Below, piece after piece: positions 46,911 to 63,990 of a DNA stretch of 64,000 nucleotides; within the stretch, counting starts at the first letter, position 1; every line of letters starts with the position of its first letter. Where the stretch lies: positions 480,052-544,051 of the forward strand of contig CAVXSS010000002.1 in assembly GCA_963764515.1 (NCBI GenBank), in the 5' to 3' direction. Both the position numbers and the translations under genes were made by a program. The notes beneath the pieces are model-generated. The model was not told the DNA's origin. It ran no database searches and saw nothing but the letters and a program-made list of their open reading frames with translations. The stretch is from an uncultured Chloroflexia bacterium. Lineage in GTDB: Bacteria > Chloroflexota > Limnocylindria > Limnocylindrales > CSP1-4.

Positions 46911-46964
46911 CCGTCCCGAGCCGGAAACCGTCTTGTGCACGCACCGCCGAATGGCTCGACGTCG

Positions 46965-49900
46965 TCAGTCGAGCGAGGACGTGATCCCAAGCGTCGCTGT
47001 CTTGTGCTGTGACGGCCGCCCACCTGAGTTTCTGACGAACATCTTGATCGAGACGTTGTTGGCTTTGGCGACGCTATCGATCTCGGGCAAGGCGACGGCA
47101 TCGCTTGCATACGCGCTGGCCGCGTTGCAGGAGAGCGGCGACCCGGGACTGCCGTGGGTGGCGAGCAGCGTGGCGCCGTCGTACACCTCGAAGTAATAAC
47201 AAGTCGTGTCGCCAACCGTTGCCGAGCGATACGTGTGGCGGAAGGTCGCGCCGGTGACGACGGAGCCCGCCGGAACGTATGCGGGGAACGTCAGCTTCAG
47301 GTATCGACTGCTATCGAACGATGTCGACCAGCTGGACGTCGAGGTGTATGCGCCATCGCTGACGATGATGACGAACGACTGTACGGCGCTCGTGTCGACC
47401 CCGCCGTTCGCGGTGCCGCCGTCGTCGTGGATCCGGACGCTGACCGTGGCGATACCCGCAGCGCCGGCCGCAGGGGCGTAGGCAAGCGTGCCGGTCGCGC
47501 CGACCGCAGGCTGCGAGCTGAACAGCGGGTTGTTGTCGTTGGTGACGAGGAAGTCGACGACCTGGCCTGCCTCGTCCACCGGACCCGTCGTGATGGCCGT
47601 CGCCCAGCCGCCGACGCTCTGCGCAGCGGCCTCCTGGCGGACGGTCTGGTCGGCGCCCTTGGTGAAGCTCGGCACGTCGTTGACGGCCGTGACGGTGATG
47701 GTCGCGGTCACCGTGTTCGAGTCGAAGGTGCCGTCGTTGGCCTTGTATGTGAAGGTGACGGCTCCGTTCGCGTTGGCGACCGGGGCGTAGCTGAAGGACC
47801 CGTTGGCATTCAGCACCAGGGCGCCCGTGGCGACGTTCGAGACGAGGATCGCACTGAGCGGGTCAGTGTCGGGGTCGGTGTCGTTGAATAGCACGCCGTT
47901 GTAGGGCGTCCCGGTGATCGGCACAACTAGCGTCGTATCTTCCCTGGTCGTGTAGCTGTCCGCGACGGCCGTCGGGGCGCTGGCGATGAGAACCGCGCCG
48001 GATACCGTCGGGGTGCTGCTGTTGCCGACGTTGTCGATGACGACGAGCTGCCAGCGGTAGCAGTTGCCGTTGACCAGGCCGATATGGTTCCGTGGGCTGC
48101 TGCCGGTGTCCGGCGCGCCGTCATTCGCGTAGGACACGCTGGCGCATGTCCCGGGAGTGACCACGCCTCCCTTCTGCCGCTGGAGCGATCGCGAGGCCAC
48201 GCCGGACCCGGTCTCGGTCTCAGACCAGGTGACAGTGACGCTGGTCGCGGACTGGGTGGTCAGGCCCGCGACGGGGATCGAAAAGGTCATCGACGGCGCA
48301 ATGGCGTCCGCGGTGAGGGTGACGGTCCGGGTAGCGCCCGCGGTCAGCACGTTGTTGTAGGGCGTCACGGTGATGTTGGTCGTGGCCGAGGAGGCGGTCC
48401 AGGTGGCGTTCCTGGCCGCCGGGTTGCCGGCGACATCGCCGGAAGCGTAGGTCCATCCCGTTCCAGCGGAGAGCGCACCGTAGTTGTGCTTGTTGATGCC
48501 CGAGGCCGGGTCCGTCGAGCTCGAGGAGAGACTGATGGTGCCCGTGGCGCCGCCCTTGAACCAGATCGCGCTGTTGGGACTCGACTGGTAGACGTTGGTG
48601 CCGGAGCCGGTCACGTTCGGCTGGCTGGGCGCGGTGGTGTCGATCAGTACGGCACCGGACGTGGATCCGGCCGCGTTGCCCGCGAAGTCGGCGAGCGTCT
48701 GGACCCAGCGATAGCAGGTGCCGGTGACGAGCGGACTCTGGGCGACCGAGGAGACGGCCGTGCTGGGAGCGCCGTCGGTGCTCCATGCGGTGGCGGCACA
48801 GGATCCCGGAGAGGACTGGCTGCCCTTCCAACGCTGGAGCGAGCGGCCGCCAGTTGTGGCGACACCGATCCCGCTGCCGTCGCTCTCGGTCCAGGCGATC
48901 GTGTAGCTCGTGGCCGCCTGGAGGGTCGTGGTGCCCTCGTTAGGAGTGGTGAAGTCCGCTGTCGGGGCGGTCGTGTCGAAGGAGACGTTGTCGAAGGTGG
49001 AGGTGTTGAGGGTGCCTGCGACATGCGAGGTGACGACGAGGCCCACGTTGATGGTGCTGCCCATGGTGATGGTCTGCGTCGCGCCCACCGCGGTCCACGT
49101 CACACCATCTGGCGAGCGCTCGGCAAGGAATGTGCTGCCGATCCTGGTCATGCGCACCCAATAGGGCGCGCTGATGCCGCCCAAAACGGTTCCCGTGGCT
49201 GAGGCACCAGTCGTCGCTCGGTAGATCGACTCGGCTCCGGCGGTTCCTTCGATGTCGGCCAACGCCATGGCACTGGTTGCGCCGGTCGTGTCACGGAACA
49301 TGACCCCGCCCTTGGCGGACACCGCCGTGTTCTGGACCGCGAGGACCTTAGCCGTCAGCTGGCCATCGCCGGTCATCGTGCGGTACACGAATTGGAATGC
49401 GTCCGTGGTGCCCCAGATGTCCGCGCCGCCACCTTTCACCGTGTACGTGCCACCGGAGAAGGTCGTGGATCCGACGATGCCGGTGGTGCCGACGTCCCCG
49501 TTGGTCGTGAAGATCCCGAGGGCGTAGACAGTGATGGCGATGGAGTCGGTGTCGGTCAGGTTACCGCCGGAGCCCGTGTTGCCGAGGTCCTTGGTGACGA
49601 CCTGGAGCGTGGCGGCGCCGCTGAAGGTCGAGGTCGGGATAAAGCTGGTCCCGGCCAGGGCAGCATTGATGTTGCCGATCGTCCCGCGGAAGGTCATCGT
49701 CGCGTCGGCGGTGCCGTCTCCGGCGCCCGTGCCGTTGGCGTCGCTGAAGGCGAAGCTCAGGCCGCCGGTGCCCGACAGGCTGACGGTGCCGTTGGTGCCG
49801 GTGAGCTGCACCTGGACCGTCGCTGCAGCGGCGTCGCTGTCGCTGATCGAGATGGGGTTGCCGTTGGCGCTGGAGAAGACCAGGGTCACGCCCTTCGAGG

Positions 49901-52900
49901 TGTCGGCCACCGCGGGCAGGCTGTTGAGCGGCGCGTCGTTCACGGCGTTGACGCTGATCGTGACCGTGACCACGTTGGAGTCGCGGAGGCCGTCATTGGC
50001 CTTGTAACTGAACGAGTCGGTGCCGTTGAAATCCCTGCCGGGCAGGTACGTGAACGAACCGTCGGCGCTGAAGTTGAGGTAGCCGTTGGCCACATCGGAA
50101 ACGAGCAGTGCCGTCAACGGGTCGGACTCCGGGTCCGTGTCGTTGGCGAGCACGCCAGTGCCGACGGCCACAGTCAGCAGCGCGTCTTCGTTGACCGAGT
50201 AGCCGTTGGCGACGGCCGTCGGGGCGACATCGGCGACGACCGTGATCGCGACGTTGTCCGTGTCGCTCAGCGATCCACCGGGGCCGGTGTTGCCCTGGTC
50301 GTTGGTAACGATCTGGAGATTGGCCGAGCCGACATAACCGGCCGTCGGGGTGTAGGTCATGCCCGCCAGCGCGGCGTTGATGTTGGCGAGCGTGCCGGTG
50401 AAGGTCATGGTGCTGTCGGCAGAGCCGGTCCCAACAGTGAACGCCAGCCCGGTCGTGCCGGAAAGGGTCAGGGTTCCGTTCGTGACGGTTAGCTGCTCCT
50501 GCACGCTTGCTGCCCCAGCGTCCACGTCGGAGACGGAGACAAGATTGCCGTTGGCCGTGGAGAAGACGAGGGAGTTATGCGTAGCCTGCGCACCCGGCAC
50601 GCCATTGATGGGAGCGTCGTTGACGGCCGTCACGGTGATGCCGCGCGTGGCGGTGTTGCTGTTCGATGAGCCGTCGTTGGCGACGAACGTGACGGTCCGG
50701 GCGAGCGTGCTGGGTGCATCGCTGGTGTTGGTGTAGGTGATCGACCGGAGGGCCGTCTGGTAGAAGGCCTTGGTCGCACCGCCGGTCAGGGCGAGGACAC
50801 CCGTACCGGCGGTCCAGGTGCCGGTGATGCCGTTCTGGTCGACGAAAGCGAGGGAGTCCTGGGGGTTGGCGTAATTGGTCGTCATCGTGATCGTCGCGGA
50901 GACGAGATTGGCCGAGTCGGCGTCGGTGACGGTGATGCCCGGGTCGAGCAGCACCGCGCCACCGTTCTCCGTGTAGGCCAGTGCGGCGACGGTGGTGGTG
51001 ACCACGGGTGCGGCAGTCGCGGGGTCGGCAATCGTCCAATCTGCGGCGGCAAAGACCGTGATCCCTGTCTGCTGAATCCAGTTGGCCGTCGCATCGCGGG
51101 TGGTGCTCGCCTTGGTGGGGTCCTGCTCGGCCCAGGTACCAGCCAGCTTCCAGAGGCCGACGACGCTCTCCGTGTTGCCGTTGAGCTCCGCGTCCAGGTA
51201 GTGGAGGCGGACCGTGGCCGTGAGCGCGCCGCCGCCGGTCGGCGTGAAGGTGTAGGTCCGGGTGACGGCCCCGGTCTTGGCGGCCGGTGCGGCCTTGACC
51301 AACTTGACCTTGAAGGCGGTCGGCGCGGTGCCGGAGTTGATGGTGATCTGGTTGTGCGGGTTGCCGAAGCAACGCATCGTCCCGGTGCCGATCGTCGTGC
51401 GGCTGACTCCGCCGGTGGCCGACAGGATCGAGGTCACGTCCGTCGTTCCGCTGCACGTCGCCGCAGAGCCGAGCGTCAAGACGTTGGCATTGCCGGCACC
51501 GGAGCCCGTCGAGAGGTCGCCGCTGTCGAGCGACAGCACGCCGTTGACCGTGGCATTTCCGGCCAGCGTCGCGCCGCTCCCGTTGTTCATCCTGAGGTGG
51601 CCATAGGTCACCGCGCTGACGGTTTGAGCCGCGCTCCCGGCGTACTCCACGGTCAGGTTGGTCAGTGTGGTGTTCGTGATCGTGTACTGGTTGCTGAAGC
51701 CGGCGGTGGCCGCCGTCCGCGTGACCTTGACCGTGCCGCTGCCGGTCAGCGTCCCCGAGCCGCTCATCACCGATGCGGCGGCAGGCGTGAACGTGCCACT
51801 GGCGCCGACGGTGAACGTTCCGTTGGCGGCGAAGTTGCCGGTGGCGGAAACGGCCGCTGAGGTGGCGATGGTGAGGCCCTGGAACGTGAGCGTCCCGGCG
51901 TTCGAGATCGATGAACCGTTGTTCATCGTGACGGTGCCGGCGGTTGCTGCCAGGACGGCCGAGGCGTTGACCGTCAGGGCGGTGGCCACGCCGAAGGTCG
52001 CGTTCGAGCTCACGTTGCTGCCGCTGATGACGAGGTTGCCGTAGACCTGGCTGCTGGCGAGCGCCGCCACGGCGGTCGTGGTGCCCGCATACTCGATCGT
52101 GCTGGTCGCGGCGACCGAATGCGTCGCGTAGCCCGCCGGGAACGTCCGCGTGCCGCCGATCTTGAGCGTCGCACCCGCGGCCACGGTGAGCGTTCCGGCG
52201 GGCACCGTTCCTGCAGCCAGCGCGGCCACTTCGACGCCGGTCAGACCGCGGTTGTAGATGCGGAAGTCGTCGACGCGTCCGTCGAAGTACGTATCGGCGG
52301 CGTACTGGGATCGGCCGATCCAGTTGTTGGCCGTGTTGCCCAGGCTCGACGGACCGAGCGTCATGCCGGTGTTCTGGCCCACCTGCGAGCCGTTCACGTA
52401 GAGCGTGCCCGTGTTGCCCGACTTGGTCACCGCCACGTGGACCCATTGGGCGATCGGCAACGCAGCTGTGCCATTGATGACCTGCTCGGTCCCGGCGCCG
52501 CCGGTGGTGATGGCAAAGCGGACGACGTTCGTGCTGCCGTTCTGCGCCGTCAGGAACATGTACGCGGTCGTGCCCGTGCCGTAATCGAAGATCCGCCGCC
52601 AAAGGCCAGTCGTGTCGCGCCGCACCCAGGTCGCGAAGGTGAAGTTGCTGAGCGTGCTGACGATGCCGGTCGGCATGGTGACGTGTTGGTTCGAGCCGTC
52701 GAGGTTGACGGCTTGTCCGATCTGACCGGTGGTGAACGTCGGGGTATTGACCAGCGTGCCATCGAGCCCGGCGCCGCCGCTGTCGGTAGCGTCGTTCTCG
52801 AACTCGTACCACGCGAAGAGTCCGGCCGCGCCGTTGTCGGCTTTGAACGTGCTGAGATCGAAGGTGCCGCCATCGATCCTCAGGTCGCCGATGACGCTCA

Positions 52901-53141
52901 CATCGGCGCCCAGTGTCAGCGTGCCGCTGGACTTGTTGACGACGAGGTCGTTGACCACCGCGGGAAGGCCGTTTCCGGTCGCCTGGGTGCCCGACCCGTT
53001 GTACGTATAGTTCGCGCCCGTCGAGTACGTGCGCGCGCCGGTGACCTGGACGTTCCCGCTCGCGCCGGAGCTGGTGATGCCGTTCGTAGACGTGATGCCG
53101 AGCGTCGCGCCGCTCGACAGGGTGAACGACCCGCGCCCCGG
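46965..53141 (-). CDS. C-terminal ~2058-aa segment (frame C) of a giant secreted subtilase-adhesin
   Basis: This is the ORF 46965..52958 extended upstream in-frame to the TGA at 53142-53144. It contains two LamG/concanavalin-like jelly rolls, repeated Ig-like modules, VNDAP Big_9/cadherin-like repeats and a distinct C-terminal domain. The LamG units read ...WVHVAVTKSGNTGTLYVNGSQ...FDGRVDDFRIYNRGLTGVEV... and ...WVRMTRIGSTFLAERSPDGVTW.... The Ig-like modules read ...GTCYRWVQTLADFAGN... and ...GNCYRWQLVVIDNVGN.... The repeats read ...TDPESDPLTALLV...TVTAVNDAP.... Confidence 0.75.
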   Translation of the reverse strand, partial: PGRGSFTLSSGATLGITSTNGITSSGASGNVQVTGARTYSTGANYTYNGSGTQATGNGLPAVVNDLVVNKSSGTLTLGADVSVIGDLRIDGGTFDLSTFKADNGAAGLFAWYEFENDATDSGGAGLDGTLVNTPTFTTGQIGQAVNLDGSNQHVTMPTGIVSTLSNFTFATWVRRDTTGLWRRIFDYGTGTTAYMFLTAQNGSTNVVRFAITTGGAGTEQVINGTAALPIAQWVHVAVTKSGNTGTLYVNGSQVGQNTGMTLGPSSLGNTANNWIGRSQYAADTYFDGRVDDFRIYNRGLTGVEVAALAAGTVPAGTLTVAAGATLKIGGTRTFPAGYATHSVAATSTIEYAGTTTAVAALASSQVYGNLVISGSNVSSNATFGVATALTVNASAVLAATAGTVTMNNGSSISNAGTLTFQGLTIATSAAVSATGNFAANGTFTVGASGTFTPAAASVMSGSGTLTGSGTVKVTRTAATAGFSNQYTITNTTLTNLTVEYAGSAAQTVSAVTYGHLRMNNGSGATLAGNATVNGVLSLDSGDLSTGSGAGNANVLTLGSAATCSGTTDVTSILSATGGVSRTTIGTGTMRCFGNPHNQITINSGTAPTAFKVKLVKAAPAAKTGAVTRTYTFTPTGGGALTATVRLHYLDAELNGNTESVVGLWKLAGTWAEQDPTKASTTRDATANWIQQTGITVFAAADWTIADPATAAPVVTTTVAALAYTENGGAVLLDPGITVTDADSANLVSATITMTTNYANPQDSLAFVDQNGITGTWTAGTGVLALTGGATKAFYQTALRSITYTNTSDAPSTLARTVTFVANDGSSNSNTATRGITVTAVNDAPINGVPGAQATHNSLVFSTANGNLVSVSDVDAGAASVQEQLTVTNGTLTLSGTTGLAFTVGTGSADSTMTFTGTLANINAALAGMTYTPTAGYVGSANLQIVTNDQGNTGPGGSLSDTDNVAITVVADVAPTAVANGYSVNEDALLTVAVGTGVLANDTDPESDPLTALLVSDVANGYLNFSADGSFTYLPGRDFNGTDSFSYKANDGLRDSNVVTVTISVNAVNDAPLNSLPAVADTSKGVTLVFSSANGNPISISDSDAAAATVQVQLTGTNGTVSLSGTGGLSFAFSDANGTGAGDGTADATMTFRGTIGNINAALAGTSFIPTSTFSGAATLQVVTKDLGNTGSGGNLTDTDSIAITVYALGIFTTNGDVGTTGIVGSTTFSGGTYTVKGGGADIWGTTDAFQFVYRTMTGDGQLTAKVLAVQNTAVSAKGGVMFRDTTGATSAMALADIEGTAGAESIYRATTGASATGTVLGGISAPYWVRMTRIGSTFLAERSPDGVTWTAVGATQTITMGSTINVGLVVTSHVAGTLNTSTFDNVSFDTTAPTADFTTPNEGTTTLQAATSYTIAWTESDGSGIGVATTGGRSLQRWKGSQSSPGSCAATAWSTDGAPSTAVSSVAQSPLVTGTCYRWVQTLADFAGNAAGSTSGAVLIDTTAPSQPNVTGSGTNVYQSSPNSAIWFKGGATGTISLSSSSTDPASGINKHNYGALSAGTGWTYASGDVAGNPAARNATWTASSATTNITVTPYNNVLTAGATRTVTLTADAIAPSMTFSIPVAGLTTQSATSVTVTWSETETGSGVASRSLQRQKGGVVTPGTCASVSYANDGAPDTGSSPRNHIGLVNGNCYRWQLVVIDNVGNSSTPTVSGAVLIASAPTAVADSYTTREDTTLVVPITGTPYNGVLFNDTDPDTDPLSAILVSNVATGALVLNANGSFSYAPVANANGAVTFTYKANDGTFDSNTVTATITVTAVNDVPSFTKGADQTVRQEAAAQSVGGWATAITTGPVDEAGQVVDFLVTNDNNPLFSSQPAVGATGTLAYAPAAGAAGIATVSVRIHDDGGTANGGVDTSAVQSFVIIVSDGAYTSTSSWSTSFDSSRYLKLTFPAYVPAGSVVTGATFRHTYRSATVGDTTCYYFEVYDGATLLATHGSPGSPLSCNAASAYASDAVALPEIDSVAKANNVSIKMFVRNSGGRPSQHKTATLGITSSLD

Positions 53142-53251
53142 TCAAGGTCGTCGTCGTGCCGGCCATCTGGAGCGTCGCGCCGCTGTCGACGATGAAGGCG
53201 ACGTCGTTCGAGACGGTCCCGCCTGACGCGTACGTCTGCACACCCGACCCG

Positions 53252-55780
53252 TTAAAGGTGACGCTGCTCGTGGTGCTCGTGCCGGTCTCGGTCAGCGTTC
53301 CGCCTGAATGGGTGAAGTCGCCGGCGACGTTGAGCGTCACGCTCGCCGCCGATTCGATCGCTGAAGTCGAACGACCCGCTCGAGAGCGAGAAGTTGCCGC
53401 TGACGGACATCGCACGAACGCCGGTGCCGATCGTCCCGCGCAGCGTGCCACCCGTCTGGGAGTAGTCGCCGCCCACGGCCAGGTCACCCGCGGCGTTGTT
53501 GCCCAGTGCGAGCGCGCCGGTGGTGCCGGTACTGGTGACGGTCATGTTCCCGTTCACCGTCCGGAGGTAGCCGCCGAGGCTGAAGGTCGTGGTCTGGTTC
53601 GGGGTGTTCCAGACGAAATCCCAGAACGACTGATTATAGCCGATGTCCGAGGCGCCGCCGCCTGGCGGCGAGGTGTAGCCGACGATCTCGATGGTCGAAC
53701 CCGCGCTCCATGTGGCGGTCGGGATGACGCCGTCCGCCGTCGTCCACGCGTGCTGGTACCGGCCGCCGCTGTTGACGACGATCGTGGCGCCGGTGTTGAT
53801 GGTCACCGTCCCGGCGCTACGGAACGTGCCGGTCACCGACAGGTCGGTACCCGCCCCCGCGTTCAGCGTCAGCGTGATGCCGCTGTTGAGGTCGAGCTCG
53901 CCGCCCGCATCGACGACGACCTCGTCCGCCGTCACGTTGGCAGCGACGGTCACGATGTGGGCGTTACGGATCGTGATCGTGCTGGCCGCATTGGTCGGCG
54001 CGAGGGTCGCGGTGCTCCACGTGACACAGCCGCCGGCGATCGGAGCGCTCTGCCAGGTGCCTGTCGTGGCCCAGTTGCCGCTGGCACGGGAGCGGAAGCA
54101 GTCGGTCGACGTGGAGGCCGCCACGTAGGGACCCACGAAGGGGCCACCGTCGGCGGCTCCGGTGTTGCCGGCCGGGGTGACCGGCTCCGTGGCGGCGTCC
54201 TGCGCCGCGCGAGCGAGGTCGAGGCGGCCGTTGCCGGTCTGGGCCCGCGTGCCGACGGCTGCCGCCGAGCGCGCCAGGCGGCCCACGATGACGGCGTTGC
54301 TGGCGGTGGTGTCGAGGGCCCAGAGGAGGGCCGCGGCACCGGCCACCTCGGCGGCGGCGGCGCTGGTGCCCGAGACGCTGGTGTACTCGTCGTCGGTGAG
54401 CGGGTCCGCGTCGGCGTTCGCGGCGGTGGTCAGGATGTCAACGCCGGGTGCCGCCAGGAAGGTCTGCGGTCCGTGGTTGCTGTCGGCCGCGAGGAGGTCC
54501 GCCTCGTCGGTGGAGGCAACGCCCATCACACCGCGATCGCCGGCGGGGTACGTCGGCGTTGTGACGCCGTCGTTGCCCGTCGCCGCGACGATGACCGCCC
54601 CGCCGTCCCAGGCGTAGTCGATCGCCGCCTGGAGCGCGGCCGAGTAGCCGGGGGCGGAGAACGCGAGGAGGATGACGTCCGCGCCATTGTCCGACGCGTA
54701 GAGGATGCCGCGGATGATGTCGCTGTCCTGGCCCGTTCCGTCCGCGGCGAGAACCGCGACCGGCATGACCCTGACGCCTGCCGAGCCGATGCCGGCGATG
54801 CCCTCGCCATTGTCGGTCGCCGCGGCCACGATGCCGGCCATCCACGTCCCGTGGCCGTTCGGGTCGGTCAGCGGGTCCGTGCCGACAAAGGATGCGCCTG
54901 GGATGGTCCGGCCGAGGAGATCCGGATGCGAGGCGTCGACTCCGGTATCGAGAACCGCGACCAGGGCCTCGCCGTCGGTCGGAACGCGGACCGATGGCCA
55001 GCCGATCCTTGGCAGCGACCACTGGTCCGCGTAGCGAGGGTCAGCCCCGACCGCCTCGACGGCGCGGGCGCGATCGAGCTCCACGTGCACCACGCCCGCG
55101 CGCGCGCGCAAGGCGGCCGCGCCGGCAGTAGCAGCTGCCGCCGGCAGCTCCACGACGGCGAGGCCGAGCGCGGGAACCGTCGAGACGATCATGGCGCCGC
55201 CTGTCGCCAGCGCGGCCGCCTGTTGTTGAGCCGACGTCCATCGATTGAAGGTCACGATGTAGCTCACGGGATTGGTCGTGACCGACGATGGCTCTGGCGG
55301 CGAGGATGCGCCCAGCGGAGAAGGCGCCTGCGTGAGGGGTGCGCCAGGAGCCGGGCCCGGTTCCGGCACGCCGCTCCCTTCGGGCAATGGCATCGGGCTC
55401 GGTTCCGGCGTGATGCTCGCTTCAGGCGGCGACTCTGGGTCAGGGGACGGCTCATCGGGAACGGCCGATGGGTCGACCTCCGGGGGTTCGGTCGGCGTGG
55501 GCTCGGCGGTCGGCGAGGGCTCGGCGGTCGGCGAGGGTTCGGCGGTCGGCGAAGGTTCGGCGGTCGGCGAAGACGACGGATTCGGGGCGACGGATGCGGC
55601 CATGTCGGACGGAACCGGGGTCGCAGGGTGGGCCGCGGTCACGGAGGCCGGCATCAGCACCGTCGCCACGTAGAGAGCGGCCAGCATGCCGGCTCGGATC
55701 CCGGCGGCGCGTGCAGCGCTGGACCGGAACCATCGGGTCCGGATCGACCGCTTCCGGATCATGGGATGTCGAGCCCCCAT
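53252..55780 (-). CDS. N-terminal segment (frame A) of the giant protein: Sec signal peptide, Pro/Ser/Glu-rich linker, S8 subtilisin-like protease domain, then beta-helix-like T/G/S-rich repeats
   Basis: The S8 catalytic triad is VAVLDTGVD (Asp), NGHGTWMAG (His) and SGTSAAAAEVAG (Ser). The last ~35 codons of this ORF (DRIGGERDAQRRRRL...) are post-frameshift noise. Confidence 0.8.
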   Translation of the reverse strand: MGARHPMIRKRSIRTRWFRSSAARAAGIRAGMLAALYVATVLMPASVTAAHPATPVPSDMAASVAPNPSSSPTAEPSPTAEPSPTAEPSPTAEPTPTEPPEVDPSAVPDEPSPDPESPPEASITPEPSPMPLPEGSGVPEPGPAPGAPLTQAPSPLGASSPPEPSSVTTNPVSYIVTFNRWTSAQQQAAALATGGAMIVSTVPALGLAVVELPAAAATAGAAALRARAGVVHVELDRARAVEAVGADPRYADQWSLPRIGWPSVRVPTDGEALVAVLDTGVDASHPDLLGRTIPGASFVGTDPLTDPNGHGTWMAGIVAAATDNGEGIAGIGSAGVRVMPVAVLAADGTGQDSDIIRGILYASDNGADVILLAFSAPGYSAALQAAIDYAWDGGAVIVAATGNDGVTTPTYPAGDRGVMGVASTDEADLLAADSNHGPQTFLAAPGVDILTTAANADADPLTDDEYTSVSGTSAAAAEVAGAAALLWALDTTASNAVIVGRLARSAAAVGTRAQTGNGRLDLARAAQDAATEPVTPAGNTGAADGGPFVGPYVAASTSTDCFRSRASGNWATTGTWQSAPIAGGCVTWSTATLAPTNAASTITIRNAHIVTVAANVTADEVVVDAGGELDLNSGITLTLNAGAGTDLSVTGTFRSAGTVTINTGATIVVNSGGRYQHAWTTADGVIPTATWSAGSTIEIVGYTSPPGGGASDIGYNQSFWDFVWNTPNQTTTFSLGGYLRTVNGNMTVTSTGTTGALALGNNAAGDLAVGGDYSQTGGTLRGTIGTGVRAMSVSGNFSLSSGSFDFSDRIGGERDAQRRRRLHPFRRNADRDRHEHHEQRHL

Positions 55781-56514
55781 GGGATGATCTCCGTTGTGGT
55801 GTCCGCGGCGTCGCGGAACATCACCGGATAGAGGGTGAAACCCTGGTAGGCGGTCGATCCGACGACGGTCGCCTGGTCGATGACCATCGCGGCGTTGCCG
55901 GACTCCTTGCCGAAGATGCGGACGCGCAGGTCGTTCGCGATCGAGGTCGTCGCCGCTGCCGGGATCGACGTCGAGAACGTCGTCGGGGTCGTTCCGGTGA
56001 CGCAGCCGACCGGGCTACCTGGACTGCCGTGCGTCCCGAGGACCGCGCCGGTCGAGATCCTCCGAACCTCGAAGTAGTAACACGCCTGGCCCGCCCCGCT
56101 GCTGGCAAGCCTGAGGTCGAACGTTGCGGCAGAGACGGCCACACCCGAGGCCAACGAATCGTTGAGGTCGAACTCGAGGTACCGGCCGGCCGCGAAGGTG
56201 CTCGACCAGGTCGACGTGGTCACGGTCAGGCCATCGCCCGAATAAGCGAACGAGTTGGAGCGGTCGACCTCGACGCCGGATGATGAATCGCCGACCTCGA
56301 ACGCGGGGGTGACGCGTTCGCCCGGGAACAACGCCTTTGACCCGAACAGGGCCACCCCCTCCGTTTGAGCCGTGAAGATGGCGAGGCTCAGTCCAACCAT
56401 GGCGAAAGCGATGGAGACAAGCGCGCCCACGGCCGCAAACACGATGACGGCACGGAAGCGGCGCCTCGGGGTGGCGATGCCGATCGCGTCTCGCCCTCCC
56501 GCTCGGGCGGTCAT
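55759..56514 (-). CDS. Exported TasA/camelysin-like small protein whose C-terminal ~135 aa is homologous to the C-terminal domain of the giant subtilase-adhesin
   Basis: The N-terminal TM/signal region is followed by LAIFTAQTEGVALFGS, resembling the TasA-type mature N-terminus. The C-terminal region ...GQACYYFEVRRISTGAVLGTHGSPGSPVGC... parallels ...TTCYYFEVYDGATLLATHGSPGSPLSC... at the giant protein C-terminus. It overlaps its neighbours by 4 and 22 bp. Confidence 0.6.
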   Translation of the reverse strand: MTARAGGRDAIGIATPRRRFRAVIVFAAVGALVSIAFAMVGLSLAIFTAQTEGVALFGSKALFPGERVTPAFEVGDSSSGVEVDRSNSFAYSGDGLTVTTSTWSSTFAAGRYLEFDLNDSLASGVAVSAATFDLRLASSGAGQACYYFEVRRISTGAVLGTHGSPGSPVGCVTGTTPTTFSTSIPAAATTSIANDLRVRIFGKESGNAAMVIDQATVVGSTAYQGFTLYPVMFRDAADTTTEIIPWGLDIP

Positions 56515-57062
56515 GGGACCCCTGCCTGCCGGGTAGCGCCGAATGACAGCGTCACGGTTGTAGTCGAGCCCTGGAGCCCGTTATCAGAATCCCACGGCAG
56601 GTCTGCCCGGAAGCACAGGATCTCGGCGGTTGCAGCGGGCAGCGGCCGGCCGTCGACTTCGTTGCCGAACGCCGCGTCATCGAGCGGGCCATCGAACAGG
56701 GTCATGCCGTCGAAGTCCGCGCAGGATGAGCCGATCGTCTTGATCGTGAGGAGCAGCGCCGCCGAGAGACGGTGTCCACCGACTGCCACGAGCCCACGGC
56801 GCATCGCGTACGTCACGGGTTCACGACCGGAGTTCGTCACGGTTATCGAGGCCGCGACCGAGTCTCCGGGAACCAAGTCGCGGGCCGACAGAGTCGCGTC
56901 TCGTGCGTCGGCACTGAGATCGATCGACGAGATCTCGAATCGGTCGGGGGCAGCCACGTCGGCGCGCGGCGGGCTGGATGTGACCGTCTTCCAGGTGAGC
57001 CACGCGCATGCGATCGATAGCACGACGATCAAGGTCACCGCAAGCCGCCGGCTTCGGGTCAT
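56511..57062 (-). CDS. Exported/membrane-anchored small protein (possible SipW-cognate substrate)
   Basis: The 183-aa product has an N-terminal TM segment (LAVTLIVVLSIACAWLTW) and is beta-rich and acidic. It sits between sipW and the TasA-like gene above, with 4-bp overlaps on both sides. Confidence 0.5.
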   Translation of the reverse strand: MTRSRRLAVTLIVVLSIACAWLTWKTVTSSPPRADVAAPDRFEISSIDLSADARDATLSARDLVPGDSVAASITVTNSGREPVTYAMRRGLVAVGGHRLSAALLLTIKTIGSSCADFDGMTLFDGPLDDAAFGNEVDGRPLPAATAEILCFRADLPWDSDNGLQGSTTTVTLSFGATRQAGVP

Positions 57063-57607
57063 GGCGCGATCGGCTCTCGGGCATCAGCCGGGATCGTGCG
57101 GGCGCGCGGCTCGAGCATTTCGAGGAGCACATGGAAGAGGAGGAGTGCGCCGAGGAGGCACAGCGCGGCGAGCACGCCGGGACCCTTTGACAGGAAGTCC
57201 TGGGCGTAGCCGGCGTACGGCACGTACCGGTCCGCGGCCCCGACGATCGCCCGACCGGGAACGAGGCTGGCGTCTGGATCCTGGTTGGCGTCGCCCTTCG
57301 TTTCGAAAAAGCGGCCTTCCGGCAGATCGACCACGCGACTCACGCGGTGGGTCACGACGACCTCGTTGTCGGCGCGGATCGTGATGACGTCGCCGACGCC
57401 GACCGTCATGACGTCGGTCGGGGTGACGACGACCAGGGAGCCGATCGGGATCGCGGGCTCCATCGAGCCGCCGACGACGACGAACAGCTGGTGGCCGGTG
57501 AGCGGTGCGAAACGGGTGAACAGAGCGAAGCTGATGAGGAGGACGAAAAGCGATATCCCGATGAGACCGACGGCCCGACGCGCGAGACGGGACGAGCTCA
57601 GGATCAT
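57059..57607 (-). CDS. sipW: Signal peptidase I, archaeal/SipW-type
   Basis: The product has an N-terminal TM segment, then the VVVGGSMEPAIPIGSLVVV catalytic-Ser motif (GSMEP) typical of SipW-type SPases, then ...GDANQDPD.... It also has a C-terminal TM (VLAALCLLGALLLF). Confidence 0.8.
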   Translation of the reverse strand: MILSSSRLARRAVGLIGISLFVLLISFALFTRFAPLTGHQLFVVVGGSMEPAIPIGSLVVVTPTDVMTVGVGDVITIRADNEVVVTHRVSRVVDLPEGRFFETKGDANQDPDASLVPGRAIVGAADRYVPYAGYAQDFLSKGPGVLAALCLLGALLLFHVLLEMLEPRARTIPADAREPIAP

Positions 57608-57679
57608 CGAGATCGCGCTCCATTCATGCGAGAGCGGTCCGACCGTCGGTCGGACCGCTCGGTGCTGCCGGGCGACGGC

Positions 57680-58255
57680 CTAGTTGTTCTGGGTTTGCTC
57701 GGCGTTGAAGGTGAAGGTCGTGACCGCAGTCGCGCCCTGGAACGTTTCGTCGGTGGCAAGCGGGAGGGAGACCCGGATGCAGAGCACGTCGGTCGCGGCG
57801 GCAGCCACGGTCCGATCGCCGGTTCCGTCAGTCGGTGAAACGCTGCCGAACATGACGTTCGAGGCGCCGAGCACTTCCGACGCCTGGAGGACCGTGCCAT
57901 CAAAGTCGTCGCACTTGACGAGCGGAGTGGTGGCGTCCACGGTCCTGACCTCAACGGTCAGGGCTGCGTTGAGCACGCCGCCGTTCGGGCCAGCCACGCT
58001 CGTCGACGTGGTGTTCAGCGAGTAGCGGAGCTCATTGGTCCCGACGTTCTCGACGTCGACTGAGCCGGTGTTGGAGTCACCAGGCATCATGTTGGCATTC
58101 GTGAGCGAGAGGGCGTCGATCTTCGTCGCGTCGAGGATGATCGTCCCCGCAGTGAACGTCCCGTCGACGGTCTCGGTGTCCGTGAACACGGCTAGGGACG
58201 TCGCCCCGACACCGATGCTCGCGACTGTGAGGGCGGCCCCGAGAGTGAGAAGCAT
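57680..58255 (-). CDS. TasA/camelysin-family (peptidase M73-like) exported protein with SipW-cognate-type signal peptide
   Basis: The ORF 57680..58813 was trimmed to the ATG at 58255. The 191-aa product reads MLLTLGAALTVASIGVGATSLAVFTDTETVDGTFTAGTIILDA..., matching the TasA-family signal peptide plus AxF(T/N)D mature N-terminus, and is beta-rich. It is the first gene of the sipW operon. Confidence 0.75.
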   Translation of the reverse strand: MLLTLGAALTVASIGVGATSLAVFTDTETVDGTFTAGTIILDATKIDALSLTNANMMPGDSNTGSVDVENVGTNELRYSLNTTSTSVAGPNGGVLNAALTVEVRTVDATTPLVKCDDFDGTVLQASEVLGASNVMFGSVSPTDGTGDRTVAAAATDVLCIRVSLPLATDETFQGATAVTTFTFNAEQTQNN

Positions 58256-58578
58256 GCGTCTGCGCTTGGTGTCCAAGGTGGTTCTCGTTTCTCTACATGC
58301 GTTGCGGTGGGTCGCCGAGCGATCGCCATGTCGCCGGCTTCGCCGGGGTCCTTGGCTCGCGCGGTCGATGCCATTACAGGACACGAAGGTGGTACCCGTA
58401 AGTACCCGAATTCCGCGCGACGTCAAAACTATCGAGTGCCGGCTGGTGCCGCGGCGGTCCATCGAACGTGATGCGCCGTTCAGATGGGCGTTGTCCGCGC
58501 ACGAGGGCCTTCGCGTGTTGCGTGGATGCCTACAGGATCGGGCACCGCTCGAAGCGCCCGATGTAGTACTGATGGCTG

Positions 58579-58666
58579 TCGGTGGTCGAGTGGTTGGTGT
58601 CTCGTTCGCCAGATCACCGAAGAGCGCCTGATAGACTTCGCGCCGCGGGCGGGAGTAGCTCAGTTG
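58579..58666. repeat. Right copy of the ~85-bp imperfect direct repeat (perfect core 58624-58666)
   Basis: See the left copy at 46826-46910. The two copies lie ~11.75 kb apart and bracket exactly the tasA-sipW-giant-adhesin operon. Confidence 0.7.
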
Positions 58667-58695
58667 GCAGAGCGGCAGCCTTCCAAGTCTCCCGC
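58644..58695 (+). other. tRNA-like minihelix: acceptor-stem-like 7 bp (GCGGGAG/CTCCCGC) enclosing a canonical D-arm (TA-GCTC-AGTTGGCA-GAGC) and 15 further nt; no anticodon or T arm could be folded
   Basis: The element starts inside the right repeat core. The left repeat copy keeps GCGGGAGTAGCTCAGTTGG but loses D-stem closure. This suggests a tRNA-gene remnant or tRNA-like attachment-site relic rather than a functional tRNA. Confidence 0.3.
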
Positions 58696-58917
58696 TGTCG
58701 AGCGTTGTGCTCTGATCACAGGATCCCCGCACAAATCGGCCGATTGGGGCCCAGTTTGACGCTCGGGTGCGACAGCGTATAAGTCGGCCACAGCGGATAA
58801 CTTCCTGGGACAATTGAGCGCTGTCTCGGGCCCCTGGATCGATGCCTGACGAAGGGATCGCGCGGTCCTCTTCAATGCCCGGGCCAATGGGCCTCTGGGG
58901 GCGGGACGGGAACCCCG

Positions 58918-60054
58918 CTAGTTGACGGGCTGTGATGCGAGCGTCGTGAGGTCGATGGTCTCGTCGCCAGCCACGACCGCGGCATCATATCTGCGCTGGA
59001 GGTTCGTCACGAGTCGAACCACCGTGTTGCCGCAGACTCCGGTCGACAGGTAGACCCGCAGCCACTCCGGAGTTATGTCCATGCGGAATTGCTGTCCGAC
59101 GTGAAGGTCAACGACTTCCGCCTCTGCGAACTGGTCGTTCACCAAGCGGGGGACGGCCCAAAGCCGGAACGGATCGCGACACGAGAAGAGGCCTGTCAGG
59201 AATTGACCCATATCATCGATCCGGCGACCGAAGCTGATCTGCAGGACGTGCCCCTCGAAGCCAAAGCCGCTTTGCTCAGAGCCCTCCCAGCCAATCGAGA
59301 AGTGCCGCTCGATGTGCCGTACCGCCTGGGCGTATGCCTGAACGGCGCCGGCCATGAAGCCCAAGTGGAGTTCGAAGGCGGCGCCACGGGCGGCGAAGCG
59401 CCCTTGATAGTGGGCTGCTTCGTCGACCACTCCGAGATCCGGATCGCGCATCCGAAGGGCCACTCCGCTTAAGGCTGTCGACAGGCGATACCGGTCGTCA
59501 CCGATGAGCTGATCGAGCAACTCATCCGCCGAATCGCCCTCAAGCTGCACCCGAAGACGCCGCGCGCGAACTCCCTCCAAGGGCAAGAGTTCGTCGCCCC
59601 GGAACTCCGACTTGAACCATCGCGGCTCACCGGCACCCTGCAACCCACGAAGGAACTGCCAGGGGAACCAGCACCAGTCAATGCCCCGTGACGACCAGAC
59701 TGCTCGTCGCAGCTGACCCTGCACGATTCCCGCGGGAGCCGCTGTATGAATCAACCAAAATCGTGGATCAAGGACGTCAACGAAGAGCCCAACGGAGTCA
59801 TCCCACAGAAGAGCCAAAGCTGGATCGTCGGTCCGAGACATCGAGAGGCCAAGTCTTCTCCCGAGGGCTGCGACAGCATCAAGAGGGTTAGGCTCTTCGT
59901 GCCCGGAGTTCACCTCTAGGGCATAGCTCTTGACCTCGCCTGCACGCAGCTCAAACGGAAGGCGATCGGGTTCTCGGCGCTGACCCGACATTGCTGCTGT
60001 CAGAAGACCAGCGATACCCTCGCGGTCGATCGGCACGGATGGGACAGCCGTCAC
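58918..60054 (-). CDS. Hypothetical 378-aa protein, no family recognisable by eye; lower-GC gene
   Basis: The ORF is intact and has GC of roughly 58-60% against ~70% in the flanking DNA. It begins 3 nt after the stop of the upstream gene, so it is operonic. It contains an RHIERH (Rx4H) stretch and a Trp-rich segment WCWFPWQF, but no confident motif. Confidence 0.55.
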   Translation of the reverse strand: MTAVPSVPIDREGIAGLLTAAMSGQRREPDRLPFELRAGEVKSYALEVNSGHEEPNPLDAVAALGRRLGLSMSRTDDPALALLWDDSVGLFVDVLDPRFWLIHTAAPAGIVQGQLRRAVWSSRGIDWCWFPWQFLRGLQGAGEPRWFKSEFRGDELLPLEGVRARRLRVQLEGDSADELLDQLIGDDRYRLSTALSGVALRMRDPDLGVVDEAAHYQGRFAARGAAFELHLGFMAGAVQAYAQAVRHIERHFSIGWEGSEQSGFGFEGHVLQISFGRRIDDMGQFLTGLFSCRDPFRLWAVPRLVNDQFAEAEVVDLHVGQQFRMDITPEWLRVYLSTGVCGNTVVRLVTNLQRRYDAAVVAGDETIDLTTLASQPVN

Positions 60055-60057
60055 GTC

Positions 60058-60984
60058 TTAGCCCTCCCCGCGCTCGATCTCTTGCCCGAGATCTTCAAAC
60101 GACATCTGCCCAGCAGGGACCCTGGCCGCCCTCGGTCTTCCTCTCAAGGTGCGCTCGGCTTTGCGCCGCATGCTCTGCCATCCCTGAGTCTCGCCTCTCG
60201 GATCGAAGGCAGCAGGTGACCGGAGGATACGGAGGACGCTGCCTTGGATGTCGGCGCCGCCAGGTTCAACCGACAAGTACTCGGTGAGCTCGCCCTCCGA
60301 CATTCGCCGGACGATGGTCGTCGCCCGGTCGCGCATTCTTGATCGGGCCCGCTGACCGTAAACGCTTGAGTAGGGAATGGCGGCGGCCAGCAGGCTGTCG
60401 AAGGTGATGACCGTTTCTCCTCGCGCGGCGGCGGCGACTATAGCAGGAAGGAGAACCTCCCTGAGCTCCTCATCTGGGCTGTCAGCGTCCACTGGGATCA
60501 ACCGTGGTGGGGGACCGGCCGGGACGTTCACTTCGAACGGCGTCAGCACACTGCTACCCCTCGTCTCCAGCTTCACGCTCGAAGAGCCAATCACCAAGAG
60601 AGGAGCCTGAAAGCCAATAGCGCGAAGGCCGGTCACAACTCGCTCTTGCGACTCCTCGAGACAGGCATAGAGGGGCTGCACAATCGCTCCGGTGGGAGGA
60701 AACGGAAGGGTTACGTTTCGAGCGACGTTGTCCGCGGTCATGACCTCGTATCGTTGGGCTTGATCAGCCTCGACGTTGTTGCCGCTCTTGCACTCCGTCG
60801 GCAGAAGGATCTGTCGATCAGCGTTGAGTCCGAGCCCGTCGACAACCACGGACGTGCGTGAGGTGGAGATGGGAATCTCGAACCGCTGGATGCGGAAGCC
60901 TTGGTCACGAAGGGGAGCGGGCCAACCACCTTCGCCTGTCAGTAGGGCGATCCAGGCGTTGAGCGGGATCAGACGTGGTTCCAC
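60058..60984 (-). CDS. Hypothetical 308-aa protein with N-terminal PD-(D/E)xK nuclease-like motif (VVVDG...ILLPTECK); lower-GC gene
   Basis: It has a GTG start. The beta-strand-D then ExK arrangement, ~13 residues apart, mirrors the HsdR nuclease motif seen in this window (DVILFVNGLPLVLIELK). The C-terminal ~150 aa are unassigned. Confidence 0.5.
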   Translation of the reverse strand: MEPRLIPLNAWIALLTGEGGWPAPLRDQGFRIQRFEIPISTSRTSVVVDGLGLNADRQILLPTECKSGNNVEADQAQRYEVMTADNVARNVTLPFPPTGAIVQPLYACLEESQERVVTGLRAIGFQAPLLVIGSSSVKLETRGSSVLTPFEVNVPAGPPPRLIPVDADSPDEELREVLLPAIVAAAARGETVITFDSLLAAAIPYSSVYGQRARSRMRDRATTIVRRMSEGELTEYLSVEPGGADIQGSVLRILRSPAAFDPRGETQGWQSMRRKAERTLRGRPRAARVPAGQMSFEDLGQEIERGEG

Positions 60985-61075: not shown

Positions 61076-63990
61076 TCACTCGGGTGGCCGCTCCGCGACC
61101 GCCAAGAGATCGGTAGCGTGCTCAGCGGCTACCGGGTACTCGACGATCGGCGGTTCTGACGGCGGCTCCGTGCCCCACGCCGCCGACAAGACCTCCGCCT
61201 GCTCAAGGACGGTCTGCGTGGCCTTGGTCTGCTTGTCCGGCGGGTAGCCGTACTTGCGCAGGACGCGCTTGACGATTAGGCGGAGCTTGGCGCGGACGCT
61301 CTCCTTCTCGGCCCAATCGATCGTCGTGTTGCGTCGAACGGTTGAGACAAGCTCGCGGGCGATGGTCCGTAGAGTGTCGTCGCCGAGCACGGCGACCGCG
61401 CTGTCGTTCGTCTCTAGGGCGTCGTAGAAGGCGAGTTCGTCGTCGCTCAAGCCGAGCTTCCCGCCGCGCTCTTTGGCCTCGCGGATCTCGCGGGCGATCT
61501 CGATCAGCTCTTCGATGACCGCCGCCGTCTCGATCGCCCGGCTCTGGTACTTGCGGAGCGACCGCTCGAGCATCTCAGAGAACGCTCGCGACTCAACGAG
61601 GTTCCGGCGCGACCGGATCTTGATCTCGTCGGTGAGCAGCTTCCGCAGGAGTTCGACTGCCAGGTTCCTCTGAGGTAGGTCGCGGACCTCTGCCAGGAAC
61701 TCGTCGGACAGGATCGAGATGTCCGGCTTTGGGAGACCGGCCGCCGCGAAGACGTCGATGACCTCCTCACTGACGATCGCGCCGGCGACAATTTGGCGCA
61801 CGGCGTGCTCGATCTCGGCCGGCCCACGCTTGCCCTCCGCCGGGCCTTTGGGCAGCGCGGCACGGACGGCCTGGAAGAAGGCAACCTCATCCCGGAGCGC
61901 GAGCGCACCCTCGTGCGGGACGGCGAGAGCAAAGGCCCTCGACAGGGCGCTCACGCTGGCGAGCAAGCGCTCGCGACCATCCACCTGCGCCAGGACGTAC
62001 TCGAGTGCGGCCGGCAAGACCGACAACCGTTGGGTCGGGGTACCGGTGAAGAACTTCGAGCGGTCGAAGCCGTGGAACAAGCGCGGCCACGACCTCGTAC
62101 TTCTCGTGAAAGACGGCGACCGCCTCGGCCTGGTCGATGGCGGTGGTGCCCTTGCCGCCGCTTCGCGTGTAGTCGGCCATCGCGCGGCGGAGCTGATCGG
62201 CGACGCCGAGGTAATCGACCACCAGGCCGCCCGGCTTGTCCCGATAGACACGGTTGACGCGCGCTATCGCCTGCATCAGGCCATGGCCGCGCATCGGCTT
62301 GTCGAGGTACATCGTGTGCAGGCTCGGCGCATCGAAGCCGGTCAGCCACATGTCCCTCACGATGACGATCCGGAACGGATCCTCGGGATCGCGGAACCGG
62401 CGGGCGAGCACCTCGCGCCGAGCCTTGCTTCGGATGTGCGGCTGCCATGGGAGCGGATCGGATGCCGAGCCAGTCATCACGACCTTGAGCGCGCCCTCGA
62501 CATCGGTCTTGCCGGCCCACTGCGGTCGGATGCGGACAAGCTCGTCGTACAGGTCGACGGCTATTCGCCGGCTCATGGCGACGATCATCGCCTTTCCCTC
62601 GAGGGCATCGACACGCTGCTCGAAGTGCTCGACCAGGTCGGCGGCGACGAGCGACAGGCGCCTGTCGGTCCCGACTAGCGCCTCCAGCGCCGCCCATTTC
62701 GACTTGATCTTCTCCTTGGCGGCGGTCTCCTCGCCCTCGGTTACCTCATCGAACTCGGCGTCGATCCGCGGCTTCTGCTCCTCGGGCAGATCGAGCTTGG
62801 CCAGACGGCTCTCGTAGTAGATCGGGACAGTTGCCCCGTCGTCAACCGCGCGGCTGATGTCGTATACGTCGATGTAGTCGCCGAAGACGGCTGGTGTGCT
62901 GCGGTCGGCGAGCTCGATCGGCGTGCCGGTGAAGCCGATGAACGTCGCGTTCGGCAGCGCGTCGCGGATGTTCTTGGCGAAGCCATAGGACAGGTGCGCC
63001 GTACCGTCTCGGCGCTCAACTACGTGTGCACCGAAGTCGTATTGGCTGCGATGGGCCTCGTCGGCGATAACCACGACGTTGCGCCGATCGGTCAGTAGCG
63101 GGAAATGGTCGCCAATTTCGTCCGGCAGGAACTTCTGGATGGTCGTGAATACGACACCGCCGGCGGCGACCGCGAGGAGCCGCTTGAGATGGGCGCTCGA
63201 CTCGGCCTGGATCGGCTCCTGGCGAAGCAGCTCGGCGCACTGGGCGAAGGTCGACGAAGAGCTGGTCGTCGAGGTCGTTGCGGTCGGTGATGACGACGAT
63301 CGTCGGGTTCTCGAGCGCTGGCTCGAGCACCAGGCGTCCGGCGAAGTAGGCCATCGTCAGGCTCTTGCCCGAGCCCTGGGTGTGCCAGACGACGCCTGCT
63401 CGCTTGTCGCCGTCGGGTCGACTGGCCGTGATGGCCGCCTCGATCGCGTGGTTGACGGCGTGGAATTGGTGGTACCCGGCGAGCTTCTTTGACACGCCAG
63501 CCGGCTCGTCGGCGAAGACCAGGAAGTGACGGAGGTAGCCGATCAGGCGGTCGGGGGCGAGAAGGCCACGGATGAGGACCTCGAGCTCGGTGACGTTCGC
63601 GGGCGCGAGGTTCGCGCCGTCGATCGTCCGCCAGCGCATGAACCATTCGCGACCGGATGTCAGCGAGCCGAAGCGGGCCTCGACGCCGTTCGAGGCGACG
63701 AGCAATTCGTTGTACCCGAAGATCGTCGGGACCTTCGCCTTGTAGGTCTGGAGCTGGTTGAACGCCGACCAGATGTCGGCGCTCTCGGTTGTCGGGTCCT
63801 TGAGCTCGATCAAGACGAGCGGCAGTCCGTTGACGAAGAGGATGACGTCGGGCCGGCGGTTCTCGCCCGCCTCGACGATCGTGAACTGGTTGACCGCCAG
63901 GAAGTCGTTCGCGGCGGGCCGATCGAAGTCGAGGAGACGGATCCGCTCGCCCGCGATCCGCCCGTCGCCAGCGGCGTACTCGACCTCCAC
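61076..63990 (-). pseudogene. hsdR: Type I restriction enzyme R subunit (HsdR), N-terminus beyond the window end, disrupted by two single-base frameshifts
   Basis: Three consecutive track ORFs in different frames together give a colinear HsdR: a nuclease motif FVNGLPLVLIELK; helicase motif [16 protein letters not shown]; [14 protein letters not shown]; motifs III-VI ...IGFTGTP...; and the C-terminal helical domain. The frame switches at ~63245-63252 (LDDQLFVD|FAQCAELL) and ~62078-62086 (YEVVAA|[11 protein letters not shown]). Confidence 0.8.

Follow-up and report, generated by a model that had tools for sequence, protein, structure and literature searches.

A TasA/SipW-type operon coupled to a giant S8 protease-adhesin gene in uncultured soil Chloroflexota

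TasA fibres are a leading model of biofilm-matrix assembly, and they have been studied almost only in Bacillus. In Bacillus subtilis the signal peptidase SipW has two substrates, TasA and TapA. In TasA fibres the N-terminal strand of each subunit is inserted into the next one; TapA, with an N-terminus resembling the TasA donor strand and an unrelated body that is itself a complete beta-sandwich, is considered the likely initiator of the fibre (PMC9674648, PMC10151520). The archaeal bundling pili (ABP) AbpA/AbpB of Pyrobaculum form a TasA-homologous donor-strand filament, for which AbpB has been proposed as the initiator that gives the first strand, with its distal domains serving as adhesins; homologs of PF12389/TasA have also been recorded already in Chloroflexota (PMC9245690). 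In the haloarchaeal Tat-fimbriae (tafi) of Haloarcula hispanica, a dedicated signal peptidase I (TafD) is found with a major subunit (TafA), a paralogous minor subunit (TafE) and a lectin-tipped initiator (TafC, laminin-G-like), and TafF has been proposed as a donor-less terminator or anchor (PMC11821415). Here we describe an operon from an uncultured Chloroflexota bacterium, located within a 64,000-nucleotide (nt) stretch of contig CAVXSS010000002.1 (this whole stretch is called the window), that carries genes for a TasA-like protein (P1), a SipW-type signal peptidase, two further small proteins (P3 and P4) and a giant S8 protease-adhesin. On balance, the operon probably encodes a TasA/TapA-like (also tafi-like) donor-strand fibre system, in which P4 is the TapA-like subunit.

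The genes are real, and the operon is conserved in uncultured soil Chloroflexota (Limnocylindrales). The order P1-hairpin-SipW-(P3)-P4-S8 giant is present in 11 loci from metagenome-assembled genomes (MAGs) named Limnocylindrales, Chloroflexota or Chloroflexia, and on further metagenome contigs (related loci and contigs carry the labels L001-L033). The initial annotation of this DNA had proposed a SipW/TasA-type operon coupled to a giant S8 protein, and the comparative genomics bears this out through an order that is kept in over 20 Limnocylindrales/Chloroflexota contigs. In the window the operon region has a guanine plus cytosine (G+C) content of 67-72% and is laid out as follows, with product lengths in amino acids (aa):

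57680..58276, minus strand: P1, TasA-like, 198 aa
57608..57679, minus strand: spacer with hairpin, 72 nt
57059..57607, minus strand: sipW, 182 aa
56511..57062, minus strand: P3, 183 aa
55759..56514, minus strand: P4, 251 aa
46965..55762, minus strand: giant S8 protease-adhesin gene, ~2930 aa if intact

The coordinates first assigned to sipW, P3, P4 and the end of P1 (57680) hold in the sequence. P1 itself had been called as 57680..58255, and only its end stands: the most likely start, judged from sequence, is TTG 58276, 21 nt upstream of ATG 58255, because the database contains a protein of 100% identity that, like nearly all homologs, is ~198 aa long, and this start supplies a basic n-region (DTKRRR). 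The small genes had also been described as chained by ATGA overlaps. Such overlaps do join sipW to P3 and P3 to P4, and P1 is separated from sipW by the 72-nt spacer instead. A third ATGA overlap, between P4 and the giant gene at 55762, confirms that the chain of small genes feeds the giant gene, whose conserved start is ATG 55762 (MIRKRS...), not ATG 55780; this junction is ATGA or GTGA in 9 of the 11 related loci. Overlapping start and stop codons are likewise found inside the tapA-sipW-tasA operon of B. subtilis. Unlike in that operon, the major subunit comes first here, ahead of a hairpin.

P1 belongs to the TasA family and carries a SipW-cognate signal. It matches Pfam PF12389 at 32.4 bits (gathering threshold 22.5; residues 6-189 of a 191-aa version of the protein) and TIGR04088, the profile of the SipW-cognate signal, at 26.2 bits (cut-off 19; residues 7-39), and its homologs are already annotated in the database as PF12389 or 'TasA family protein'. 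The core of its AlphaFold2 model is well predicted, with a predicted local distance difference test (pLDDT) score of 70-91, and the top three Foldseek matches of this model are the TasA structures 5OF2, 5OF1 and 8AUR (probability 1.0, E 4e-4 to 1.4e-3, template modelling score ~0.42), so that the model has the TasA jelly-roll fold. In the family profile, FTDTETVDATFTSGTIiLD aligns with TasA FNDIKSKDATFASGTLDLS from residue 2 of the mature chain, with the P1 segment FTDTETVDATF... as the counterpart of the mature TasA N-terminus FNDIKSKDATF...; the alignment points, at the level of sequence, to an N-terminal donor strand in P1 equivalent to TasA residues 28-47. Because the profile aligns P1 with the first residues of mature TasA, SipW cleavage is predicted between SLA29 and V30FTD. 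The donor-strand region is the best-conserved part of P1 outside the core. Its confidence in the monomer model is low, as expected for a strand that needs a partner. P1 has two conserved cysteines (122 and 166) and no histidine, and the latter argues against a camelysin-type metalloprotease, an idea that was rejected. A TasA-family major subunit with an N-terminal donor strand, for which P1 is the candidate here, is a feature common to this operon and that of B. subtilis.

By its sequence, SipW is an archaeal/endoplasmic reticulum (ER)-type signal peptidase I with an intact Ser/His/Asp set. The TIGR02228 profile (archaeal/ER-type signal peptidase I), which the initial annotation had named as a check, gives 95.8 bits against a cut-off of 51.85, and Ser48 (GGSMEP), His87 (THRV) and Asp106 (KGDAN) align with GSMEP, VHRV and KGDNN of human SEC11A (7P2P). 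Enzymes of the SipW type have a catalytic His in place of the bacterial Lys. The GGSMEP motif spans residues 46-51 and a hydrophobic segment lies at each terminus, in keeping with the earlier view that this protein retains both the motif and a C-terminal transmembrane segment. With 94.7 bits, the protein falls below the cut-off of 190 for the Bacillus SipW equivalog NF046067, and it is therefore a SipW-like enzyme and not a Bacillus ortholog. The operon is like that of B. subtilis in placing the gene for a dedicated ER-type signal peptidase next to those of its substrates (PMC10151520, PMC9674648); it differs in the phylum, Chloroflexota, and in having a SipW that scores below the Bacillus equivalog cut-off.

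P4 shares only the signal and the first strands of P1 and then continues into an unrelated jelly-roll domain, here called A. A paralog of this domain, called B, forms the end of the giant protein:

55780..56232, minus strand: P4 'A' domain, jelly-roll, residues ~95-245
46968..47351, minus strand: 'B' domain, final ~130 residues of the giant protein, paralogous to domain A of P4

P4 begins with a long n-region and a hydrophobic segment, after which cleavage is predicted between SLA45 and I46FTAQ; residues 46-110 hardly vary across the family. Its N-terminus (the h-region, SLA45 and I46FTAQ.E..A.F, then FPGERVTPAF) aligns with the signal, donor strand and PGD strand of P1, with an hhalign probability of 87.5% and an E value of 3.6e-6. 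An N-terminal pattern common to P1 (SLA followed by VFTDTETVDGTF) and P4 (SLA followed by IFTAQTEGVALF) had been pointed out before, and the profile comparison indicates that it is conserved in both families and lies beyond chance. Residues 61-110 of P4 match the folded part in conservation (mean column identity 0.84) and are unfolded in the monomer model (pLDDT < 50). The fold of the body is CBM/lectin-like by structure-model comparison; no homology or fold similarity was found between this body and TapA. Like TapA of B. subtilis, P4 would thus be an accessory protein with an N-terminus that copies the donor strand and an unrelated beta-sandwich body.

Searches of Pfam and NCBIfam gave no match for P4 or for the A/B domain, and the profile of the wider P4-like family, run against PDB sequences, found matches for nothing but the DNRLRE/CBM96 tail that some members have, which is unrelated. 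The relationship between the A and B domains is apparent from BLASTP, in which residues 111-206 of P4 match residues 1885-1979 of the last open reading frame (ORF) of the giant gene with 34% identity (E 7e-13). B is the extreme C-terminus of the giant ORF wherever that end is present (L001/4, L002/5, L003, L009, L011, L012 and L016); in L013, the end of the giant ORF gave no detectable B domain. The P4 family profile collects 299 clusters (50% identity level) at E <= 0.001, most of them ~370-aa proteins with a signal, A and B in a single chain. Some members bear extra DNRLRE/CBM96 domains, and others are large exoproteins with A-B at their end. The end of P4 coincides with the A-to-B linker (...PWxL...) that continues into B in the fused proteins. 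In two lineages SipW and a P4-like protein are one ORF (L016 8001..9272 / L017 1289..2560; L033 449..2167), and the L016 SipW::P4 fusion is followed by a 2154-aa S8 giant with a terminal B domain; if SipW cuts P4, such fusions would process themselves. The P4/A-B family and its link to the giant S8 protein appear to be the new part of this system, and we found no paper on either.

P3 is related to P1 over most of its length and is not a third kind of small protein, as had first been thought. BLASTP aligns it with P1 at 31% identity over 154 aa (E 9e-17), the two families match in hhalign with a probability of 99.8% (E 2.6e-29), and the conserved cysteine pair of P1 is also present in P3. P3 scores only 12.8 bits against PF12389, below the threshold of 22.5, and has no Pfam or NCBIfam match above threshold; because of its clear homology to P1, it is, transitively, a divergent member of the TasA/camelysin family. 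Its hydrophobic N-terminus is followed by a variable linker where P1 has the conserved FTDTE strand; this N-terminus varies across the family, with no conserved AxFTD-type motif in the alignment. The P3 gene is optional. Only a sub-clade carries it (the window, L002, L006, L008, L009, L022-L024 and L032), and it is absent from L001/L004, L007, L010-L013 and L025-L028, about half of the related loci; this patchy distribution leaves P1, SipW, P4 and the giant gene as the core. The TasA paralog P3 and the translationally coupled ~2930-aa S8 protease-adhesin are both additions relative to the B. subtilis operon. Other, unassigned contigs (L015, L018 and L019/20) carry two or three small proteins, of which at least two are weakly TasA-like, together with SipW and an A-B protein, and have no giant gene. 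The sipW-tasA-calY locus of B. cereus is not known to include a TapA-like or P4-like gene or a coupled S8 protein, and both of its paralogs keep the canonical signal. In that locus SipW is accompanied by two TasA-family paralogs, which are comparable to P1/P3 (see also PMC4475387).

The spacer between P1 and sipW contains a GC-rich hairpin, predicted by RNA folding:

57632..57660, minus strand: GC-rich hairpin, 13-base-pair stem, 3-nt loop

A 91-nt segment with this hairpin folds at -42 kcal/mol (z = -3.4). The hairpin occurs at the same position in 9 of 9 loci examined, with differing sequences, and its covariation is visible in the RNAalifold result, where 7 of 13 pairs show compensatory double changes. 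The ribosome-binding site of sipW comes after the hairpin, which a terminator scan missed, since it has no T-run.

The fibre model builds on these homologies, motifs and synteny, and proposes from them how cleavage, polymerisation, polarity and stoichiometry would work. SipW would cut P1 after SLA29 and P4 after SLA45, which would free their N-termini. The freed N-terminus of P1 (VFTDTETVDGTF...) would be the donor strand that fills in the beta-sandwich of the following P1, so that P1 would form the shaft of a TasA-like filament. P4 would act like TapA or TafC: its P1-like N-terminal strand would complement the first P1 and so start the fibre, and its lectin-like A domain may fix the fibre end to a glycan, either of the cell envelope or of the substrate, or to a partner. 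P3, with an acceptor body and without the conserved strand, could be an optional minor subunit, serving as a cap/terminator or an adapter. The hairpin would raise the output of P1 over that of the translationally coupled sipW-P3-P4-giant genes and thereby set the ratio of major to minor subunits. The giant protein, which has its own Sec-type signal and would be made with P4, may be brought by its B domain to wherever the A domain takes P4. The idea of a heteropolymeric fibre, put forward in the initial annotation, is in this form, with accessory subunits, the best reading of the evidence on P1, P3 and P4.

The arrangement had also been thought not to have been described, and here the TapA/TasA system, the tafi, the Chloroflexota TasA homologs and the similar clusters on other contigs are precedents. 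By the description in its paper only, the tafi has a comparable set of a peptidase, a major subunit, a paralogous minor subunit and a donor-strand initiator with a lectin-type domain; unlike the proteins of the present operon, its subunits use Tat signals and are Ig/FimA-like, not TasA-like, and the taf cluster is without a giant protease (PMC11821415). AbpA/AbpB differ in that there is no dedicated signal peptidase beside their genes and in their accessory domains. Among the papers searched, none links Limnocylindria with TasA, and for TIGR04088/TIGR04089 and SipW-dependent or SipW-cognate proteins there were only two, both on Bacillus.

Several points weigh against a fibre system of this kind. 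Three SipW-cognate substrates had been envisaged, and the curated SipW-cognate profile TIGR04088 recognises P1 only: P3 has no match at E <= 1, and neither P4 nor any of its 31 close relatives has one at E <= 10. The wider P4-like family counts on the other side, as do the SipW::P4 fusions: 6 of 80 members match this profile at E <= 1 (best 4.5e-4), and the P4-like protein of L014 reaches 15.3 bits, which is sub-threshold (cut-off 19). The similarity between P4 and P1, at the probability of 87.5%, is short, ~55 columns. A-B proteins also occur with no SipW or TasA gene close by: in L014, an Actinomycetota MAG, one (9872..10999) lies between nnr (YjeF) and alr (alanine racemase), downstream of glmM and glmS, with no SipW or TasA-like gene within 10 kb, and in L021 an A-B tail is found on a beta-helix/PKD protein within a glycan-synthesis cluster, away from SipW; the A/B module is thus not confined to fibre systems. 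The hairpin is without a U-tract, a sigma-70 promoter scan of 46500..59000 returned no sites, and the transcript structure is accordingly a presumed one. The giant gene is frameshifted twice in this very window. Lastly, all carriers are uncultured MAGs.

As to what the A and B domains do, the conservative reading is that they are lectin-like modules that take P4 and the giant protein to the same glycan or envelope layer, since the CBM/lectin-like fold matches and the presence of A-B tails on unrelated exoproteins both fit such a role. A bolder alternative, which we regard as doubtful, is that the A domain of P4 binds the B domain of the giant protein and so re-forms the A-B tandem, with the fibre as a stalk that displays the ~2930-aa protease-adhesin. 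A and B are paralogous; in many lineages a ~370-aa protein joins them head to tail, with the ...PWxL... linker falling exactly at the end of P4; B is always at the extreme C-terminus of the giant protein; and the P4 gene invariably lies next to the giant gene, which it overlaps by a conserved ATGA. However, domain fusion is indirect evidence of binding, and CBM-like modules in tandem as a rule work next to one another on a ligand and do not bind each other. In addition, A-B tandems end unrelated exoproteins, such as the beta-helix/PKD protein of L021, and this is better fitted by a generic anchoring or binding module. Docking, if true, would arm a donor-strand fibre in a manner for which the TasA, TapA, ABP and tafi systems offer no described example.

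It is improbable that there is no fibre at all, with P1 and P3 being soluble or wall-associated, camelysin-like proteins exported by SipW, and the operon working mainly as a secretion and processing unit for the giant S8 proteinase, to which the small proteins would be substrates, inhibitors or wall spacers. This would accord with the naming of PF12389 after camelysin, which was first described as a protease, with the finding that TasA is also a stable monomer (PMC9674648), and with the S8 protein being the largest and most conserved investment of the operon. Yet P1, having no histidine, lacks the usual metal-binding site, its donor-strand region is the part that is best conserved outside the core and aligned with the donor strand of TasA, and P4 copies this strand; moreover, the combination of a paralog and an initiator matches the logic of known fibre systems.

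The giant protein is laid out as a Sec-type signal (predicted cut between ...VTA and AHP), SPTAEP repeats, a fervidolysin-like prodomain, the S8 domain, LamG, Big_9, cadherin-like and DUF1349-like modules, and B. Its S8 domain scores 128.1 bits against PF00082 (threshold 21.8) and contains the catalytic motifs VLDTGVD, HGTWMAG and GTSAAAA. A link of this domain to mycosins and type VII secretion was considered and rejected, as the TIGR03921 score of 150 bits is below the equivalog cut-off of 278.75. Cell-envelope subtilases such as lactococcal PrtP are likewise multi-domain, surface-directed S8 proteases with a prodomain and a C-terminal targeting module. The giant protein differs from PrtP-type proteinases in having no LPXTG or S-layer anchor and ending in the unnamed B domain, in its LamG, Big_9 and cadherin-like adhesin modules, and in being encoded inside a TasA/SipW operon.

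In the window the giant gene occupies three frames (55762..~53353, ~53353..~53133 and ~53133..46965). The L003 contig, which is 99.66% identical over 12.9 kb, has an intact giant ORF of 2936 aa; relative to it, the window has insertions of +4 at 53353-53356 and +1 at 53133, both inside a patch of ~30 substitutions (53085..53467), and the rest of the operon is almost identical to L003. A second patch of ~11 changes lies at 51819..51912 in the otherwise near-identical 12.9 kb. The patches could have been caused by a recombination tract, a mixed-strain consensus or a polishing artefact.

Other variation is seen along the giant gene. Just past the signal peptide, a tandem 18-nt repeat (55489..55578, minus strand) encodes the SPTAEP units, and L002 has a different proline-rich repeat, of 42 nt, at this place. 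The central 7.26 kb (48015..55267) is 90.6% identical to L002 (11110..18355), and the small genes and the 3' end of the giant gene, with the B domain, are only 75-78% identical to L002; this mosaic of identities suggests, as far as sequence comparison goes, that lineages have recently exchanged the protease/adhesin core. The middle of the giant gene consists of tandem repeats of ~290-420 nt in L009 (12651..17488), L013 (9091..14356) and L001 (12665..16898). These are of the ...LTKxGxGTLxLSGxNTYTG... type and replace the LamG/cadherin modules of the window. The S8 head is kept in L001, L009 and L013, and the C-terminal B tail in L001 and L009.

The operon is flanked in the window by two copies of a direct repeat:

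58605..58668, plus strand: 64-nt direct repeat, upstream copy, family D3, 92% identity
46848..46911, plus strand: 64-nt direct repeat, downstream copy

The 64 nt consist of 44 nt of 5' flank and the first 20 nt of a tRNA-Gly(TCC) gene. The pair brackets the whole 11.7-kb operon, and L003 has the same pair. In L001, L002, L009, L012 and L013 the operon sits in different neighbourhoods, and a repeat search of these loci found none around the operon, only the internal repeats of the giant gene; the tRNA-repeat bracket is therefore specific to the lineage of the window and L003. It may be a relic of earlier mobility; the stretch between the two copies contains no integrase gene. The tRNA-Gly(TCC) gene is intact in L003 (7791..7866), and the copy in the window (58649..58731, plus strand) is broken in the anticodon loop at 58687. 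ARAGORN finds no tRNA in the window, Rfam gives a sub-threshold tRNA match at 58649..58731 (22.6 against 29 bits), and no tRNA-like match was obtained from Rfam at the downstream repeat. From 58688 on, the DNA of the window is lower in G+C (62-66%) and similarity to L003 stops, so the junction at 58687 looks like either an island inserted in the tRNA gene or an assembly join. Beyond it, two adjacent minus-strand ORFs of 378 and 308 aa (58918..60054 and 60058..60984) are situated between the broken tRNA and a restriction gene; neither has a match in Pfam or PADLOC, and they may be cargo of the island. The restriction gene, for a type I R subunit (hsdR; 61076..63990, minus strand), is split by two more frameshifts into three overlapping ORFs in different frames (HSDR_N+SWI2_SNF2; SWI2_SNF2+T1R_D3; T1RH-like_C).

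That the giant gene has become a pseudogene in this genome, and that the operon between tRNA-derived repeats by a disrupted tRNA-Gly is a remnant, is very improbable: the two frameshifts within the ~30-substitution cluster at 53085..53467, the break of the tRNA-Gly at 58687 and the neighbouring hsdR split over three frames could be read in this way, but the four small genes are intact and differ from L003 by one substitution (56160, in P4; the other change nearby, 55520, is in the giant gene), the operon is intact in the 99.66%-identical L003, and the contigs appear, from their names, to be long-read metagenome assemblies, in which indels and mixed-strain consensus patches are common, so that the frameshifts may be assembly errors.

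The operon comes from an abundant uncultured soil lineage, the Limnocylindrales, and in it the role of initiator is seemingly taken by P4, a member of an unnamed family of ~300 clusters. The P4 module also ends a giant surface protease, and other lineages have it joined to SipW or to another copy of the module. If the fibre model fails, this would be simply another TasA/SipW operon. If it is true, it would provide a handle for annotating many 'hypothetical' genes next to SipW, both in Chloroflexota and on the unassigned contigs with similar clusters, and a candidate means of coupling large enzymes or adhesins to donor-strand fibres. It would also yield a testable rule for the accessory subunits of such fibres, namely that they copy the donor strand and swap the body.

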